Shown here in pieces: positions 1,657 through 18,931 of a DNA stretch of 64,000 nt. How positions within the stretch are numbered: position 1 is the stretch's first letter; each line of letters opens with the position of its first letter. A program made the position numbers and the translations under genes. Under the pieces are notes generated by a model. That model was given only the letters and a program-made list of their open reading frames with translations. It had not been told where the DNA came from and ran no database searches. The DNA is from a virus: the UHGV virus genome UHGV-1380027; one strand, given 5' to 3'.

Positions 1657-1989
1657 TTAAGGTAACCAGTAAACAATCTCACCTTTCAGCTTCATGTCGT
1701 TTCCAACATAAATTTCCCAGCCATCCATCTTAGCAACTGCAGGCCCAAAGTCATCAGCACCCCTTACTTCTTTCCAGGTCCCGTAGTCAGGCTGCCAGAT
1801 ATAGAAACCACCTTCCTTATCCCATGCACCTGCAACTACACCCAGCAGGCTACCCATTGCAACAATGGTGGGCCGTGGGAATAATACATCTACAGATGCG
1901 CCGCAATATCGGGTATCTTTTAAATTGCAATCCCAAAAGATGTCTGCCAGTGTGGCGGCGATAGCTTTACGTCTTTCTAATGTTACCAT
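1657..1989 (-). CDS. hypothetical protein (110 aa)
   Basis: co-oriented ORF in early array. Confidence 0.5.
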   Translation of the reverse strand: MVTLERRKAIAATLADIFWDCNLKDTRYCGASVDVLFPRPTIVAMGSLLGVVAGAWDKEGGFYIWQPDYGTWKEVRGADDFGPAVAKMDGWEIYVGNDMKLKGEIVYWLP

Positions 1990-1999
1990 AGTATAATAC

Positions 2000-2191
2000 T
2001 CACTTGTTGTTAAGAAGTTCTAAGACTTTCTGTTTTACTTTATCAAGATCTGTTGATTCAAAAACTGTGCGATATCCCCAACTTTGCCCATAGGAATGAC
2101 TGCAATCACCGTAACACCATTGCTCAACCTGATAGTATTCAAGGAATGGGTGCTGTCTAACTATGATACCGTCTCGATTAAAAATTACCAT
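2000..2191 (-). CDS. hypothetical protein (63 aa)
   Basis: co-oriented ORF. Confidence 0.45.
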   Translation of the reverse strand: MVIFNRDGIIVRQHPFLEYYQVEQWCYGDCSHSYGQSWGYRTVFESTDLDKVKQKVLELLNNK

Positions 2192-2254
2192 AATTTATCC
2201 CTCTCTGCTAGTTTATGTTTATATTATATACCGCAGTTTTCAGATGTCAACCTT

Positions 2255-2449
2255 TTACAGGTTACTCCAGTATACTCGGCATTTACACTTCGGGCAATGA
2301 GGTTCTTTTATGTAATAACCGTCAGTCTTTGGAACACTTTTTGGTGCAGTTTTAAGATTGTACCGAGTAAAGCAACGGAAGCAGGTTACCTCTCCTACCT
2401 GTTGATCGTTTATCCACTCGCCAGAGTAAAGCTCTTTCTTGTTTCTCAT
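2255..2449 (-). CDS. small Cys-rich protein (CxxC...CxxC zinc-ribbon-like), 64 aa
   Basis: track ORF 2255..2506 trimmed to internal ATG at 2449 which has SD GGGAGA and avoids overlap with upstream gene; motifs CFRC and CPKCKC. Confidence 0.45.
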   Translation of the reverse strand: MRNKKELYSGEWINDQQVGEVTCFRCFTRYNLKTAPKSVPKTDGYYIKEPHCPKCKCRVYWSNL

Positions 2450-2451
2450 AA

Positions 2452-2646
2452 TTATCTCCCCAAGCCTCTGCAATCTTCTACCAGAATCTCCAGCCAGAAA
2501 GCACACGGGAACACTTTGATGATTGAATCTTTACTCGGCTCGGAAGTTCTTTTTCCGTAGGGCAGGTAGAAATACCCTCCTGCAGATTCAAACATGGCTC
2601 CTTCTGTTGTATCTATCACAGCTAGAATTAAGATTTTAGTCTCCAT
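2452..2646 (-). CDS. hypothetical protein (64 aa)
   Basis: co-oriented ORF. Confidence 0.4.
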   Translation of the reverse strand: METKILILAVIDTTEGAMFESAGGYFYLPYGKRTSEPSKDSIIKVFPCAFWLEILVEDCRGLGR

Positions 2647-2700
2647 AGTGCTCCCCTGTCTTAATCGTTGTGGTGACTATACCACCTTAAAATATAGCTG

Positions 2701-3240
2701 TCAACACTCTTTGTACTCCACCACGATAATATCTATATCAAAAGTGGCAAGGTTAATAATGTCCTCTACATGTTCCCACTTCAAACCGCCTATGCCGCAC
2801 CCGATCTTAGGGATGTAGAATGGTAAAATCGACCCCTCAAATACTTCATTGACTCGCTCAAATCCTTTCAGTATTGAGAAATATTCAGCATTAGGCCCTG
2901 GGTAGAACTGAGTATACAGATTTATTCCGTAGACAATACCTCTCGGAGATAAGTGCTCCCAGCGGGAGAACGCGCCCAGTTTACTTAGGCAACCGTGCAT
3001 AGTCATTTTATCAGCTTCCAATGCTTGAGGGAACTCACGGGCAATCTGTTTTGCTACACCCTTACCCATTGTGTGGAAGCAGTTACAACCGTGGATCAGG
3101 TGACCAGCACCGCTCTTAAAAAGGGAGATTAAATCTCCCTCTACAGTATCAATAATCACGATATTCCAGCTCCTCTTCCACAATTTCAAAAAACTCAGTC
3201 CAGCACTGTGGCATATTGGAGTTACCGAAGTGGCTTTCAT
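2701..3240 (-). CDS. macro-domain-like protein (ADP-ribose binding/hydrolase fold)
   Basis: motifs HGCNCFHTMGKGVAKQIAREFP, LYTQFYPGP, FYIPKIGCGIGGL and DIDIIVVEY match the order and spacing of macro-domain loops (NAAN..GGGV..AI / HTVGP / AISTGIYG / RIIFCVF); true start may be GTG at 3159 (SD GAGGAG) rather than ATG 3240. Confidence 0.5.
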   Translation of the reverse strand: MKATSVTPICHSAGLSFLKLWKRSWNIVIIDTVEGDLISLFKSGAGHLIHGCNCFHTMGKGVAKQIAREFPQALEADKMTMHGCLSKLGAFSRWEHLSPRGIVYGINLYTQFYPGPNAEYFSILKGFERVNEVFEGSILPFYIPKIGCGIGGLKWEHVEDIINLATFDIDIIVVEYKEC

Positions 3241-3574
3241 AGTAAAGGTTTTTACCGCTCGGAAGATAGAAATCTGTTACCTCATAAAATCCACAATCGT
3301 CGCACTCTCCCTCTTCAAACTTGGCCTTAATCTTAATACCAAGGAAGGTGAAAAGTTTATGGATATCTTCGGTCTCGAACTCCCAACTAATGTTGTTTTC
3401 CGCATCGGTGTAAAACTGGATCAGTAGGCCATCATCCATTTTTCCAAAATATTCTGTGAAGTAGCTCCCTTCCCAGAAGTCTTTGTGACAAATAATATCC
3501 ATGCGCTTGCCCATAATAAAGGTGTGGGCGTTTCGTGCATCGTCACGAATCAGTTTTGGCATTTCATAAATCAT
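3149..3574 (-). CDS. hypothetical protein (141 aa)
   Basis: co-oriented ORF. Confidence 0.5.
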   Translation of the reverse strand: MIYEMPKLIRDDARNAHTFIMGKRMDIICHKDFWEGSYFTEYFGKMDDGLLIQFYTDAENNISWEFETEDIHKLFTFLGIKIKAKFEEGECDDCGFYEVTDFYLPSGKNLYYESHFGNSNMPQCWTEFFEIVEEELEYRDY

Positions 3575-3639
3575 CGTAGTTCTCCAGGATCAATAGGTGG
3601 TGCTACAGGAAGATCATAAAACATGGCGATCACATTCTC

Positions 3640-3837
3640 TTACGCAGGAATTGCTTCAAACAGGCCGTTATCGATACCATCTTTCAAGTAAAGATTATAC
3701 TCTATGTCGGTATCTGTGTAAAGGGCAGCATCCAGCATTCTATCTGTGAGTCCATCCATTGGGTGGAGAAACCACCACCCACGCCAGTCAAAGTAACAAC
3801 CTGGTGCATCTTCTCTCACACGGATTCGATAAATCAT
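3640..3837 (-). CDS. hypothetical small protein (65 aa), possible distant member of the KDDxG-W small-protein family
   Basis: contains WFLHP also present in ORF 8092..8286. Confidence 0.4.
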   Translation of the reverse strand: MIYRIRVREDAPGCYFDWRGWWFLHPMDGLTDRMLDAALYTDTDIEYNLYLKDGIDNGLFEAIPA

Positions 3838-3933
3838 GGGCAGTGGCCTCCTGTTAGTTACACATCCCAGTTTTCTTCGTTCATCACATCCTCCAGCTCT
3901 ACAAGGTTATAATTGCACACCTTACAACCTGTG

Positions 3934-4350
3934 TCAACAGAAAACTTCAACAAATTCTTCCACAGTTTTAATGTCGTGGGAAAAAGGTTTACGGCTATAA
4001 CGAGCAATAGCACTGTCAACCACCGCCCGGTACTCCAAATCTTCAGAATATTTCATGAAGCATTGCAATGTCTCTGGACAGATAGCCAGATAGCTCCACC
4101 ACCCCTCTTCAGATTGGTAGTCAAATCCCATACTCTCTAGCCACGAAGCGTATACACCTGCACCTTCCAGCCAGTGAGTATTTTCATCAAGGAACTTGTT
4201 CACAGTCATGTGAGCTTCTAAGCATTTATCCAACTCTTTTCCGTTAACCAGCCACGCACTGACAGTGGCGCATCCAAGGTCCACAGATTGGGTTGATAGA
4301 TTGTATTGGTCATAGTTCTCAGGTTTAACAATGATATCTTCTAATGTCAT
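3934..4350 (-). CDS. hypothetical protein (138 aa)
   Basis: co-oriented ORF. Confidence 0.5.
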   Translation of the reverse strand: MTLEDIIVKPENYDQYNLSTQSVDLGCATVSAWLVNGKELDKCLEAHMTVNKFLDENTHWLEGAGVYASWLESMGFDYQSEEGWWSYLAICPETLQCFMKYSEDLEYRAVVDSAIARYSRKPFSHDIKTVEEFVEVFC

Positions 4351-4375
4351 TTTTCAGTCCTCTCTATACAAAAAT

Positions 4376-4397
4376 GCCCCACCCTTTCGGGTAGGGC
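4376..4397 (-). terminator. rho-independent terminator hairpin (GAAA-loop type)
   Basis: minus-strand RNA GCCCUACCC-GAAA-GGGUGGGGC followed by AUUUUUGUAU; fully paired only in minus-strand transcript (G-U pair). Confidence 0.6.
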
Positions 4398-4412
4398 TAT
4401 GTTAACTAGATG

Positions 4413-5639
4413 TTAAAAAGGTATGTCATCATCAAAGGCGTACTGTGCCGGATTCTGATCCATCGGGTCGTCTTCCGCATCATCTACAGGAGGAGCGTCT
4501 ACAGTGTTTTGCTGTGGGGCGGCTTCCTGTTTGGCAGCTTGAGGCTCTTGATGGTCAGTGGCTCCAGCACCGTTCTTGATCCAATCATACAACGGTTCAG
4601 CAAGATTAGTCAAGACATCTTTTGCCTCTGCAGTAATTGCTACTGCAAAATCATCAACTTTCGTTTTCTTGTCAATACGGCGACAAGCGTTCAATACCGC
4701 ATTACCAACACTGGCACCTACTTCATCTTCAGTTCGGTTAGTGGCTTGAGCGTACTCTTTCTTAAGCTCGATGGTGACCACGTGCAGTGTTTTAGCCACA
4801 TCTAAAGGGCTGTCAATCTTAAACCCGCGATCCAAGATGATCTGCAATGCATTGATACTGTGCCCTGTCTCTACACCGATGGGGTCGTAAGAGGATTTAC
4901 GCTTACCACCAGAACCTTGTGTACCGTTCTCTGCTTTAGGCGGGTAGGCCTTGAAGCCGCTGATAATATTCCCGGTGTCTTTGTCAACAATAGCTGCAAC
5001 ACGACCGCCAACCACCAGGTCTTTAAGCTGCTCATCGGAGACAACCATAGCACCTTCGCCAATCTTGTGGTCATTGACAGTAACCACGTTACCAACAATC
5101 TGAGTCACATCACCATAGATGCGTAAAACGTCCTGATTGGCATTCTGCTGAGGTTTCTGCTTCTGGCCTTGTGATTGTGTGCCTTGTTGCTGTTTTTGTT
5201 GCTGTGGAGCTGATGGAGCCTCTCCTGCCCCCAACTTAACCATTTTAGCCAGTGAGCCTTTGTAGTAGGTCTTACCGTTATGCTCATTTGCCTTTAAAGG
5301 GATATTTACGATCCATCCTGGCGTTACTGTTTCCCACTTGTCATCAATTTTAACAGAGACGGAGTCTTGATGACCAGGCTTAAGCAGCTTATCACCCATG
5401 CTGATCCAAACTTCTTCACCACCTTGGAGCAGGTTATCAGAGGAGTCCAGTTCAGAAATCAGTAAAGAGATGGTGTGGCTGGATTCAATTTTCTTACCTT
5501 GCCACACAGTGGTTTTAATACCTGTTGTAGGATCAGCACCTTTAATGGGCTTGATGCTGACACGTTTAATCATACCGTGAGCCAGTAAAACAGTTTCACG
5601 CGGATTCATCGGGTTAGCAAATTGTTGGATAACGCTCAT
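4413..5639 (-). CDS. SSB-like protein with host-SSB-type C-terminal tail (408 aa)
   Basis: C-terminus AFDDDIPF identical to bacterial SSB tip; Gln/Gly-rich linker PQQQKQQQGTQSQGQKQKPQQ; adjacent to replication genes. Confidence 0.5.
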   Translation of the reverse strand: MSVIQQFANPMNPRETVLLAHGMIKRVSIKPIKGADPTTGIKTTVWQGKKIESSHTISLLISELDSSDNLLQGGEEVWISMGDKLLKPGHQDSVSVKIDDKWETVTPGWIVNIPLKANEHNGKTYYKGSLAKMVKLGAGEAPSAPQQQKQQQGTQSQGQKQKPQQNANQDVLRIYGDVTQIVGNVVTVNDHKIGEGAMVVSDEQLKDLVVGGRVAAIVDKDTGNIISGFKAYPPKAENGTQGSGGKRKSSYDPIGVETGHSINALQIILDRGFKIDSPLDVAKTLHVVTIELKKEYAQATNRTEDEVGASVGNAVLNACRRIDKKTKVDDFAVAITAEAKDVLTNLAEPLYDWIKNGAGATDHQEPQAAKQEAAPQQNTVDAPPVDDAEDDPMDQNPAQYAFDDDIPF

Positions 5640-6049
5640 TATTTATCTCCTTGTTCTTCGTTAGTGGTTGATGTATGTGCAAACCCTGCTTGAATTAATT
5701 TGTCCTGGACTTGAGCTAACAGGCCCATTGCAAAACTCGTCGTCCCAGAAAGGGCCATTAGCATATCTCGTTGTTGAGCTACCCAACCTAAGGCATAATC
5801 CAAACGACGATATTTCTCTTCTTCTCGCAGAGCCTGGAATAACTGTTCAGCCTCTGGTTGTTGTGTGAGCTCCTGAAGTCTCCCCATGAAAGAAGAAAGT
5901 ACCAGCAGAAGAGACACTTGATCTTTGCTTAACCCTAAGAAAAATTCTTGAGGTTGTTCTTGCTCGTTCATCGCAACCGACGCTTGATCGTTCATTTGTT
6001 CCATTGTGGAATCTCCGATTTTATTTGAACAACATAAAGGAGACACCAT
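5639..6049 (-). CDS. hypothetical protein (136 aa)
   Basis: strong SD AAGGAGA 7 nt upstream of ATG. Confidence 0.55.
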   Translation of the reverse strand: MVSPLCCSNKIGDSTMEQMNDQASVAMNEQEQPQEFFLGLSKDQVSLLLVLSSFMGRLQELTQQPEAEQLFQALREEEKYRRLDYALGWVAQQRDMLMALSGTTSFAMGLLAQVQDKLIQAGFAHTSTTNEEQGDK

Positions 6050-6086
6050 TTTAGCATCTCCTTCTGTAAATTACAACAGCTATTTG

Positions 6087-6332
6087 TTAGCCAATTACTT
6101 CGAAAGTGCCCCAGCTTCCGTTCAGCAGGCAGGTGATCGGATCGCCATCATCGTCAAATATTTCAAAGTTTTCAGCATCCAGAATATGATCATCGAACAC
6201 AATGCTCTTATCTCCACCACCAGAAATAACAGCGTATTCCTTACCTTGTGTTAGGTTCTGGCAACCTTTGCCGCCGAAACCAACTTCAACACAACGTACT
6301 TTCTGTCCTGCGCGAGCAACTACTCCAGCCAT
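6087..6332 (-). CDS. small protein, KDDxG-W family member (81 aa)
   Basis: SD AGGAGA; motif IFDDDGDPITC. Confidence 0.5.
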   Translation of the reverse strand: MAGVVARAGQKVRCVEVGFGGKGCQNLTQGKEYAVISGGGDKSIVFDDHILDAENFEIFDDDGDPITCLLNGSWGTFEVIG

Positions 6333-15758: not shown

Positions 15759-15817
15759 CGTTTGGTGTTCTCCTTATCTTGTGTGAAGAGTAGACCTACC
15801 CTTAGATATTTTAAATA

Positions 15818-17161
15818 TTACTCTAAATCTTCTTCTGAGTCAAGCTTATCTTTCATAACTAAGTTCGGGGCAAGTTTGTAATAGCGAAAGCCCCCGCCAC
15901 CTTGCCAGTTTACAGATTTAGAAATACCACTTTGATCTTTGCCATCGATCACTTTTTGCAAGCGCGGGATGATATGGGTATGACAATGATCACCTAACTC
16001 GACAGAGATCCAACGTCTTTTCATCTTGTGAGCTACGGCAGCAGTAGTTCCTGAACCGCCGAATGAATCCAAGACTAAATCTCCTTCTCGCGTACACATT
16101 TCGAAAATTCGCTTCAAAAGCGCTTCGGGCTTTTTTCCATTTTTGAAACTAACGCCGCCTTCATTTGCTATTCCATTCCAACTAATGTCAGTCCAAACAT
16201 CAGTTATTAGTTCAGCAGGCTGCATCTTGCCGTCAATTTCCAAAAGCCTATTGGAATAAAAGACCATTTGCCTACCATTTGCGATATAAAAGCCTTCGAC
16301 ATCCTCATTTGGATGTACATAAACCTTATCCCTATCTTTCTTTGACTTCTCGATAGTTTCTTTTCTCTTTATTTTGGCACCACCGCCAATTGCAACGGAT
16401 TGAAATACACGTTCTGCATTATCAATTGCAAATTGTGCTAATTCATCATCAAATGTATCAGGCAGTTTTTTCTTGGCTTCTTTTGTATCTTTATAGCCAT
16501 TGGCCTTTGCAAACGCATCGGCAATACCGCACCACGTCCAACTTTTATAATGGTCATCTGGGTTTAATAGATATTTGTTATATCCCGTATCATACTCTTT
16601 AGGTATATAGATTTTGTTAAGTGGTTTCTTGGTACGATCTTTTGCATATACAAGCAAAAAGTTTGCTGTGGAGAAAACTGTAGTTCCTGTTGCCTTAAAG
16701 CCTGAAGGGCAATTTGTAGTCATCGATATGGTATTTAACTGATTTGCACGACCAAAAATCTCGTCCATCAAGACTTTTAAATAAGCCATTTCGCAGTCAT
16801 CTAAGTGAACGAATATCACTCCATCATCGCTTAGCAGATTACGAATTATTTCTAATCTGTCCCGCATTAAGCCCAGCCAAATGGAGTGCTCCAGGCTATC
16901 ATCGTAGTGCTCAAAATCCCTTCCGGTATTGAATGGCGGGTCTATGTAAACACACTTCACTTTGCCTGCATACTCTTGCTCTAGTGCCTTCAATGCCAGT
17001 AAGTTATCTCCAAAAATCAGTTTATTATCAAAAATATCGTTTTCGGTCACCTTTTTACTGGCGTGATAAGACTTGCTCGAATCTTCTAACAAAATGTGAG
17101 GCTCTAGCTTTTTGCGCTCGTTCTTACCTATCCAGGTAAGTTCTAATTTGGTTTTACTCAT
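15818..17161 (-). CDS. DNA methyltransferase, beta-class amino-MTase (N6-adenine or N4-cytosine), 447 aa
   Basis: motif IV IDPPFNTG precedes motif I LDSFGGSGTT (beta-class order). Confidence 0.75.
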   Translation of the reverse strand: MSKTKLELTWIGKNERKKLEPHILLEDSSKSYHASKKVTENDIFDNKLIFGDNLLALKALEQEYAGKVKCVYIDPPFNTGRDFEHYDDSLEHSIWLGLMRDRLEIIRNLLSDDGVIFVHLDDCEMAYLKVLMDEIFGRANQLNTISMTTNCPSGFKATGTTVFSTANFLLVYAKDRTKKPLNKIYIPKEYDTGYNKYLLNPDDHYKSWTWCGIADAFAKANGYKDTKEAKKKLPDTFDDELAQFAIDNAERVFQSVAIGGGAKIKRKETIEKSKKDRDKVYVHPNEDVEGFYIANGRQMVFYSNRLLEIDGKMQPAELITDVWTDISWNGIANEGGVSFKNGKKPEALLKRIFEMCTREGDLVLDSFGGSGTTAAVAHKMKRRWISVELGDHCHTHIIPRLQKVIDGKDQSGISKSVNWQGGGGFRYYKLAPNLVMKDKLDSEEDLE

Positions 17162-17222
17162 CGTTTGGTGCTCTCCTTAGTTTTTGTGGGGAGGAGTGCC
17201 TCCCCTTTATACTCACATCTTA

Positions 17223-17564
17223 CTACTCAAGGTCTTCAGAGTCAAGCTCAAAAAGAATCAAACTGTGCATGCCTGCAGAGAGATCAACACACCCTGCAAC
17301 AATAAGGGTTTGATAGTAAGGTTCAGCACCCTCAATATCTTCGTTAAAATCCACAACAAGGTAGTCACCTTTGTTAAAGGTGTATTTGTCCGATGTAAAC
17401 GCAAAACCTGCCCAGTCCCCTACTGCAGGATCTTTATCAGTCACCTTTGTTAGCAGTAGATCTTTTTCACGAGATCTTTTAGTAAAATCGTGAATCACAA
17501 CATCCTTCTCTTCAGGAGTCGGATTGCCACACACGTAGTTAACGATATTTCTCCACAAACTCAT
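17223..17564 (-). CDS. hypothetical protein (113 aa)
   Basis: co-oriented ORF, 4-nt overlap with helicase gene. Confidence 0.5.
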   Translation of the reverse strand: MSLWRNIVNYVCGNPTPEEKDVVIHDFTKRSREKDLLLTKVTDKDPAVGDWAGFAFTSDKYTFNKGDYLVVDFNEDIEGAEPYYQTLIVAGCVDLSAGMHSLILFELDSEDLE

Positions 17565-18931
17565 ACGTCCCCCTTTTCTGCTCTAGTTTCAAAATCTTTC
17601 CTGACTTTCTCGTCTAAGCCAGGGAAAGTTGTATTATAAAACTCTACGACTCTCGGGTCAACAATAATATCCACCTCTCTTAATGGACGCAACAAGTTTA
17701 TTCCTTGTATCGTCTTAACCCGACTCAAGGCAACATACGTCATTCCGGGAGAGAAAGCTCCGTTCTTTCCGAGGTCTAGGTTGTAACAATCTAACGTAAG
17801 TCCTTGACTTTTATGCGATGTTACTGCGTACCCAGATTTCAAAGGAAGTTGCTCATAAGACCCGATCACAACCCTCTCTATGAACTTCTCCATCTTCCTT
17901 TCGGCAATATTGTACCTCTGGGAAGGTTTGTACTCGTTATTCTCCCACAATCTTGGCTCAATTTCAACCTGTGTTCCGTCTTCTAGCTCAACTACTACGG
18001 ATTTGGTCTTGAATTTTACCACTGTGGCACGTGTCCCGTTAACATAATACGGGACTTTGTGAGTAGGGTCAACATCGTTTGAGGTTATCATAACCTTCAT
18101 CCCTATCTTCAGCCTCATTTCCTGCTCCACAGGTAGTGTGGAAGGGAACTTACCTTTCATTTTACCAATGTAGGTCTTCTCTGGGGCCTTGATGGCATCA
18201 TAGAAACGTCTGTTCACCTCCTCTGCTTGCTTATTGGTGGCACAGATGGTCAAGGCATCTGTTGGGACACCACCATGATAGCAACGAGTGTTAAGCTCTG
18301 CTACAACCTCTTTTATGCGACGACCTTCACGAACACAGTTCAACATTGTGGCGAAGCGAACAGATTCCTGACGGAACTGGTCTACCAAGGCTATGTTGTG
18401 AAGATTAAGATCCTCCCAAGATTCTGTATAGCAACACAGATCTGTGTGGTAGAAGTTGAAGTAGGCTTCTTTCTCCATAGAAGAGACAACTGGAGGTGCT
18501 TGGTAGAAATCTCCAAACAATAACACCTGAATGCCTCCGAAAGGTTTGTCATTTTTCCGAAGAAAGCGGAGTTTTCTATCCATCTCTATGAACTTGTCAG
18601 CACGGATCATAGAGATTTCATCGATAATCAGGATGGTAAATGCCTTGCTTTTCAGAGGCTTTGCTGTTTTTGCCCTTATTGCTGTCCAGTCTGACTCCAT
18701 GCTCACACCTGCGGCAAGATCGAAAGTTCGGTGCGCTGTTGCTCCATTAACGTTTAAAGCGGCTACCCCTGTCGGGGCAACCGTTATGCAAGAGTCTCCA
18801 TACATGGACTGGATCATGTTGATAAGATATGTCTTCCCGGTTCCACCAGGTCCACTTACGAAGACATTCTCACCGCTCATGATTGCAACAAGGGCAGCAT
18901 CTGTGCCTACATCGTACTGCCCTTTTTCCAT
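17561..18931 (-). CDS. SF1 DNA helicase, Dda/RecD/Pif1-like (456 aa)
   Basis: Walker A VSGPGGTGKTY near N-terminus, Walker B IIDEISM, helicase-like C-terminal region. Confidence 0.75.
   Translation of the reverse strand: MEKGQYDVGTDAALVAIMSGENVFVSGPGGTGKTYLINMIQSMYGDSCITVAPTGVAALNVNGATAHRTFDLAAGVSMESDWTAIRAKTAKPLKSKAFTILIIDEISMIRADKFIEMDRKLRFLRKNDKPFGGIQVLLFGDFYQAPPVVSSMEKEAYFNFYHTDLCCYTESWEDLNLHNIALVDQFRQESVRFATMLNCVREGRRIKEVVAELNTRCYHGGVPTDALTICATNKQAEEVNRRFYDAIKAPEKTYIGKMKGKFPSTLPVEQEMRLKIGMKVMITSNDVDPTHKVPYYVNGTRATVVKFKTKSVVVELEDGTQVEIEPRLWENNEYKPSQRYNIAERKMEKFIERVVIGSYEQLPLKSGYAVTSHKSQGLTLDCYNLDLGKNGAFSPGMTYVALSRVKTIQGINLLRPLREVDIIVDPRVVEFYNTTFPGLDEKVRKDFETRAEKGDV

Follow-up and report, generated by a model that had tools for sequence, protein, structure and literature searches.

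The phage genome analysed here encodes a stand-alone, single-domain macro protein that falls into the same class as the DarG antitoxins and, judged by its sequence, is orthologous over its full length to T4 Tk.4, now also called AdfM. The analysis covered 64,000 nucleotides of the virus genome UHGV-1380027, referred to below as the window, in which the gene occupies positions 2701..3159 of the minus strand. Taken as a whole, the analysis indicates that the protein is likely to counter the DarTG2 defence by reversing the DarT2 modification of phage single-stranded DNA. This anti-DarT hypothesis is not new, as it has already been published for the T4 ortholog, and the addition made here is a small one: the widespread Tk.4-type AdfM carries the glutamine of the SCO6735 type in its active site, and not the lysine of the DarG/PhiKZ type.

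The window can be assigned to a Vequintavirus, an rV5-like myovirus of E. coli. Positions 2000-4500 give a 99.9% match to Escherichia phage vB_EcoM-ECP26, while 151 phage records match overall, and the macro gene is 100% identical in nucleotide sequence to the ECP26 gene for QDB73627.1, which GenBank names "macro domain protein". The corresponding record of rV5_ev147 carries the label [quoted passage not shown]. The identity of the gene was thus already known, many GenBank records annotating a macro domain protein. Positions 2000-4500 are also matched by 16 records that go under the name "Campylobacter phage", with C. jejuni as host (e.g. C7, MG065658, and C9, MG065661), and the two listed of these 16, C7 and C9, have 91.9% nucleotide identity and 100% query coverage; given that the region is that of an E. 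coli Vequintavirus, these are probably mislabelled or contaminant genomes.

The earlier note had placed the gene at 2701-3240 and had quoted four segments of its product. The maximal open reading frame at 2701..3240 on the minus strand, which would encode 179 amino acids, is real and all four segments (HGCNCFHTMGKGVAKQIAREFP, LYTQFYPGP, FYIPKIGCGIGGL and DIDIIVVEY) are present in its translation, but the true coding sequence is shorter. Homolog starts, the annotations of relatives and a conserved start codon and ribosome-binding sequence place it at 2701..3159 (minus strand), which gives a protein of 152 amino acids with a GTG start and a TGA stop. The remaining 27 codons, or 81 nt, at the 5' end of the maximal frame (3160..3240, minus strand) overlap the 3'-terminal part of the gene at 3149..3574, which lies upstream and is read in another frame. 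In the alignments MII or MIV forms the N-terminus of all homologs, RB49 and T4 Tk.4 included, and no extension equivalent to 3160..3240 was found among them. The GTG at 3159 is the annotated start in ECP26, nimi and rV5_ev147, and the long form is used only by the pharokka annotation of phage NHEP1. A Shine-Dalgarno-like GAGGAG is located at 3170..3175 (minus strand), 10 nt 5' of the GTG, and both elements are conserved in the diverged relatives nimi and rV5_ev147. An ATG start at 3240 was ruled out by the overlap with the upstream gene, the lack of any such extension in the homologs and the conserved GTG and Shine-Dalgarno sequence, and 3160..3240 is probably not translated as part of the macro protein.

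Comparison with diverged Vequintavirus orthologs, which are 79-91% identical in protein sequence, gives dN/dS values of 0.11-0.21, and the macro gene is therefore a maintained coding gene under purifying selection. Between the window and rV5_ev147 the macro proteins are 79% identical with a dS of ~1.3, while the products of the overlapping upstream reading frame at 3149..3574 are 92% identical. The extra divergence of the macro gene could be due to local mosaicism or to a faster turnover of this putative anti-defence gene.

The upstream gene (3149..3574, minus strand; phrog_8157) encodes 141 amino acids, and because its stop codon overlaps the macro start (GTGATTATTGA) the two genes are probably co-transcribed and translationally coupled. 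The same overlapping arrangement is found in nimi and rV5_ev147. Its product is acidic and rich in cysteine and aromatic residues, and has no match in Pfam or PADLOC. We considered whether it might be a conserved partner of the macro protein in a two-component system and rejected this, since this reading frame is conserved in, and specific to, Vequintavirus and vs takes its place in T4 and RB49; vs is the gene upstream of tk.4 in T4, T2 and RB49. Searches with Pfam, PHROGs and PADLOC revealed no DarT or other ADP-ribosyltransferase (ART) toxin gene among the neighbours of the macro gene, which are small phage reading frames of no assigned function apart from one with a zinc-binding domain. The latter, at 2255-2506 on the minus strand, matches Pfam Phage_zn_bind_2 (PF23903) with an E value of 1.5e-22, and in ECP26 the annotated coding sequence measures 195 nt, less than the maximal reading frame.

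Several sigma70-like promoter matches are found close to the macro gene on the minus strand. One of them, TTTACA-17-TATAAT at 3694..3722 (11/12), is located 5' of the two-gene unit; a second, TTGACA-17-TATAGT with an extended -10 TG at 2676..2704, lies at the macro stop codon and would serve the gene at 2452..2646; both are consensus matches only. A third consensus match, TTGACA-16-TATAAT, is found at 2250..2223 (12/12). In total the minus strand of positions 1800-6200 contains 17 such matches, compared to 7.6 +/- 2.5 expected, and the near-consensus ones sit between small minus-strand reading frames, suggesting many short early transcription units. This enrichment is consistent with, rather than proof of, an early region transcribed by the host polymerase, and it is plausible that the macro gene belongs to it. 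The same strand also contains a 408-residue reading frame (4413-5639) with long low-complexity segments rich in Gln, Pro and Gly, which is annotated as hypothetical in relatives, and a strong terminator-like hairpin 3' of it at 4397..4376.

The assignment of the protein to the macro domains is borne out by both sequence profiles and the predicted fold. The Pfam Macro family PF01661, which the earlier note had expected, is matched above its cutoff with 31.3 bits against 22 (E 2.1e-7) over profile positions 1-118 of 118, and phrog_335 is matched with an E value of 1e-60. In both NCBIfam and PADLOC the best model is DarG (E 2e-14 in PADLOC), of which only the N-terminal macro part is matched; for the DarG2 antitoxin model NF048014 this amounts to positions 3-143 of 338, and the score of 47.1 bits compares with a cutoff of 250. 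A family profile built from 37 diverse homologs recovers the macro domains of M. tuberculosis DarG (3e-18), TARG1 (6e-17) and SCO6735 (1.3e-15), with similar scores for T. aquaticus DarG, Bt_1257 and Poa1p, while those of MacroD-like and viral Mac1 domains are far lower. An AlphaFold2 model with a pLDDT of 95.9 and a pTM of 0.90 shows alternating strands and helices, and in the Foldseek comparison TARG1, Poa1p and the DarG proteins of T. aquaticus and M. tuberculosis rank highest, with TM values of 0.70-0.82. This structural comparison likewise agrees with what had been proposed from the sequence. Altogether 155 structures in the PDB match the model at E <= 0.001, and the best 50 of these 155 are macro-domain structures together with engineered enzymes whose descriptions name no macro scaffold.

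From the family-profile scores and fold matches it follows that the protein is a macro domain of the ALC1-like/TARG1/DarG/SCO6735/Poa1p class and not of the MacroD type. The MacroD consensus (NAAN...GGGG) against which it had originally been compared is therefore not the appropriate one, and the MacroD class implied by those strings is ruled out. No other ADPr-processing domain is as common in phages as the macro domain, which is defined by a GxG motif and is found in ~41% of myoviruses (PMC9503650).

Within this class the closest characterised protein is T4 Tk.4. Its identity to the window protein is 41% over the full length (BLASTP E 7e-43), and in a tblastn search of the window with T4 Tk.4 the macro gene is the sole locus below E 0.05 (E 2e-36), which we take to identify it as the full-length ortholog. 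Homologs were detected by tblastn in 2,810 of 50,697 phage records, including those of the Tevenvirinae, in which the gene is tk.4. Identity to the Tk.4 protein of RB49 is higher, at 70%. RB49 is a T4-like Krischvirus, and its Tk.4 (sequence L006, positions 1501-1956) is only 44% identical to that of T4; being closer to the Vequintavirus protein than to T4 Tk.4, it suggests a lateral exchange of the macro gene between the Vequintavirus and Krischvirus lineages.

The idea that the protein is a counter-measure to DarT gains support, by homology, from what has been reported for Tk.4. T4 without adfA and adfN is still resistant to DarTG2 (LeRoux and colleagues), which predicted a further factor, and tk.4 fills this gap: it is the single T4 gene found to be conditionally essential when the host expresses DarTG2, and has been renamed adfM, for anti-DarT factor Macrodomain, while a clean T4 tk.4 knockout is sensitised to DarTG2 (bioRxiv 10.1101/2025.11.20.689424, a November 2025 preprint). 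This evidence is genetic, comes from a preprint and concerns a protein with 41% identity to the one described here, for which we infer the same anti-DarTG2 phenotype. Biochemical support comes from the more distant AdfM of PhiKZ (gp104), which in vitro frees DNA of the ADP-ribose attached by DarT2 (PMC13309987, Cell Rep 2026).

The names given to the family could point in another direction, as phrog_335 and many GenBank records carry the label "phosphatase" or "contains A1pp phosphatase motif". An enzyme with this function would process small ADP-ribose metabolites, acting as an ADP-ribose-1''-phosphate phosphatase or an O-acetyl-ADP-ribose deacetylase, and might perhaps clear what the Sir2/RNA-repair cluster of the same phage produces. 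In favour of this reading, yeast Poa1p ranks high in both the sequence and the fold comparisons and has the HxCNC motif too, and soluble ADPr derivatives may be preferred by many viral macro domains, as Iyer et al. argue (PMC9503650). The phosphatase label, however, is a putative one, assigned through resemblance to Poa1p. The near-identical phage NHEP1 (PQ511146) does encode a cluster consisting of an RNA ligase, a hypothetical protein, Sir2 and a nucleotide pyrophosphohydrolase (sequence L008, positions 15769-18549, outside the window), possibly an NAD/ADPr-linked RNA-repair or counter-defence module that could be a source of macro substrates, yet in NHEP1 ~50 kb separate it from the macro gene. 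What functional evidence exists for the orthologous group is confined to the DarTG2-specific tk.4 phenotype, and a role in metabolite processing seems rather unlikely.

To compare the active site with those of characterised enzymes, residue conservation was counted over 104 aligned family sequences, T4 Tk.4 included. Asn26 of the HGCNC motif (codon 3082..3084, minus strand), which is equivalent to DarG N22, PhiKZ AdfM N23 and SCO6735 N27, is shared by 103 of these sequences; in PhiKZ AdfM mutation of the conserved Asn reduces activity (PMC13309987). The first Gly-rich ADP-ribose/phosphate-binding loop, located by alignment, is M31-G32-K33-G34 (codons 3058..3069, minus strand), in which M31, G32 and G34 show no variation in the alignment with DarG, TARG1 and PhiKZ AdfM and are found in 101, 96 and 104 of the 104 family members, respectively. 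The second Gly-rich loop, I119-G-C-G-I-G-G125 (codons 2785..2805, minus strand), also located by alignment, is conserved in the family, its IGCGIGG aligning with IGCGLDR of TARG1 and LGVGNGG of DarG. Each of the signature residues H23, N26, Y82-T83-Q84 and G120/G122 is present in the protein and in at least 99 of the 104 sequences.

The catalytic lysine of the DarG/TARG1 type (DarG K80, TARG1 K84) is absent from the window protein, where Gln84 of the NLYTQ motif (codon 2908..2910, minus strand) aligns with it; the segments concerned read NFPTK in DarG, LITK in TARG1 and MFPTK in PhiKZ AdfM. The equivalent of TARG1 Asp125 is also absent, with a glycine at the aligned position. Because Gln84 is shared by 103 family members out of 104, among them T4 Tk.4, it is a feature of the Tk.4 family and not a sign of decay. 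The same glutamine, as Gln85, occupies the lysine position of SCO6735, although the equivalence of Gln84 and SCO6735 Q85 rests on transitivity through DarG and TARG1; the phmmer alignment of the window protein to Bt_1257 is ambiguous in the central segment around Gln84.

Loss of the lysine might be read as inactivation, in which case the protein would be a non-catalytic ADP-ribose binder or sponge; a related possibility is that it hydrolyses immune signals such as the Thoeris-type gcADPR or His-ADPR, a macro domain being the part of the Thoeris II effector ThsA that binds such signals. We rejected the reading of an inactive macro domain, as the glutamine is near-invariant, occurs in T4 Tk.4, which is functional against DarTG2, and is required for activity in SCO6735, whose Q85A variant is inactive (PMC9411070). 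The Thoeris II paper contains nothing on phage macro counter-defence, and no evidence links the Tk.4 family to Thoeris. Binding or signal-clearing functions of this kind are very improbable, and we infer that the window protein is catalytically competent.

SCO6735, a protein of Streptomyces coelicolor, offers a precedent for how a glutamine could serve in place of the lysine. It removes thymidine-linked ADP-ribose on ssDNA better than DarG or TARG1, and mutagenesis together with molecular dynamics has led to the proposal of a mechanism that is water-mediated and independent of lysine (PMC9411070). SCO6735 hydrolyses both DNA and protein ADP-ribose (PMC9411070), and, like TARG1, the top fold match of the window protein, it reverses Glu/Asp-linked ADP-ribose. 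A second function to be weighed is thus the removal of ADP-ribose from proteins or RNA, directed against other ART defences (e.g. the mRNA-modifying CmdTAC), against toxins, or at modified host or phage proteins. DarG, however, acts on DNA and has no activity on protein substrates (PMC9411070), and the CmdTAC paper describes neither a phage macro counter-defence nor Tk.4, the T4 escape mutations being in alt.-3. No annotated ART gene is present in positions 1-50 kb and 64.6-122 kb of NHEP1. A principal role on proteins or RNA appears improbable.

For the preferred function, reversal of the DarT2 modification, the following sequence of events can be proposed. The Tk.4/AdfM enzyme would probably be synthesised early in infection from a host-type promoter. 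Host DarT2 would modify thymidines of the single-stranded phage DNA with ADP-ribose, and the macro enzyme, with dT-ADPr DNA as its predicted substrate, would most likely bind the thymidine-linked ADP-ribose and hydrolyse the bond between base and ribose. Replicable DNA would thereby be restored and the DarTG2 defence neutralised. Catalysis would probably follow the SCO6735 pattern, with Gln84 positioning the distal ribose and a water network, and no need for a lysine such as that of DarG or TARG1.

This is an ordinary phage gene from a family found in ~2,800 phage records, and its description adds little that is new. The presence of Gln in the Tk.4-type proteins and of Lys in the DarG/PhiKZ type does imply two separate classes of AdfM, and we tentatively suggest that the phage proteins of this name comprise two independently acquired and mechanistically different classes, the PhiKZ type with Lys and the far more widespread Tk.4 type with Gln. 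If this is true, Tk.4-type enzymes could share the wider range of SCO6735, acting on protein-linked as well as thymidine-linked ADP-ribose, and could counter more than DarTG2. The lysine to glutamine difference is therefore a point to address when a Tk.4-type AdfM is characterised biochemically. For Vequintavirus phages, which are represented in phage-therapy and biocontrol collections, the prediction is that they are intrinsically protected against DarTG2.

Among the known systems, PhiKZ AdfM (gp104) resembles the window protein: both are DarG-like phage macro domains that stand alone and have the conserved Asn. The two are only ~23% identical (E 2e-5), so that gp104 is best placed as a distant relative and not as an ortholog, and they differ at the lysine position, which is K78 (PTK) in PhiKZ and Gln (YTQ) here. 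PhiKZ AdfM is imported into the phage nucleus, and Vequintaviruses are not known to be nucleus-forming. The two types of AdfM are probably independent acquisitions that share a name, and the chimallivirus protein likewise protects against DarTG2 (PMC13309987).

The DarG2 macro domains of T. aquaticus and M. tuberculosis (PDB 5M31/5M3E/5M3I) give the best profile and sequence matches in the PDB and share the fold, the Asn and the Gly loops. Unlike DarG2, the window protein has only 152 amino acids, no C-terminal DarT-binding domain and no adjacent darT, and Lys80 is replaced by Gln. Because it lacks both the DarT-binding domain and a toxin neighbour, it is an orphan antitoxin-like enzyme, a DarG-like catalytic domain without a toxin partner. 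Human TARG1/OARD1 and yeast Poa1p are the top structural matches (TM 0.72-0.82). The Lys84/Asp125 dyad of TARG1 is absent, with Gln84 and Gly in its place, and Poa1p acts on Appr-1''-p, the resemblance to the window protein being one of sequence and fold only.

SCO6735 (PDB 5E3B) is likewise an orphan macro protein of the ALC1-like class with Gln at the lysine position, but it is encoded by a bacterial chromosomal gene and acts on proteins too. It has a longer mobile loop with the extra lysines K89 and K93; in the window protein the segment that follows Gln84, FYPGPNAE, contains no lysine. SCO6735 is able to rescue cells from DarT toxicity (PMC9411070).

The closest parallel is T4 Tk.4/AdfM itself. 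It comes from another phage subfamily and has a vs/tk neighbourhood, where the 141-aa reading frame is found upstream here, and of the two it is the one for which genetic evidence exists. Both proteins nevertheless belong to phrog_335, are single domains of the same length, and share the HGCNC...MGxG, NLYTQ and IGxGIG motifs as well as the Gln at the position of the DarG lysine.
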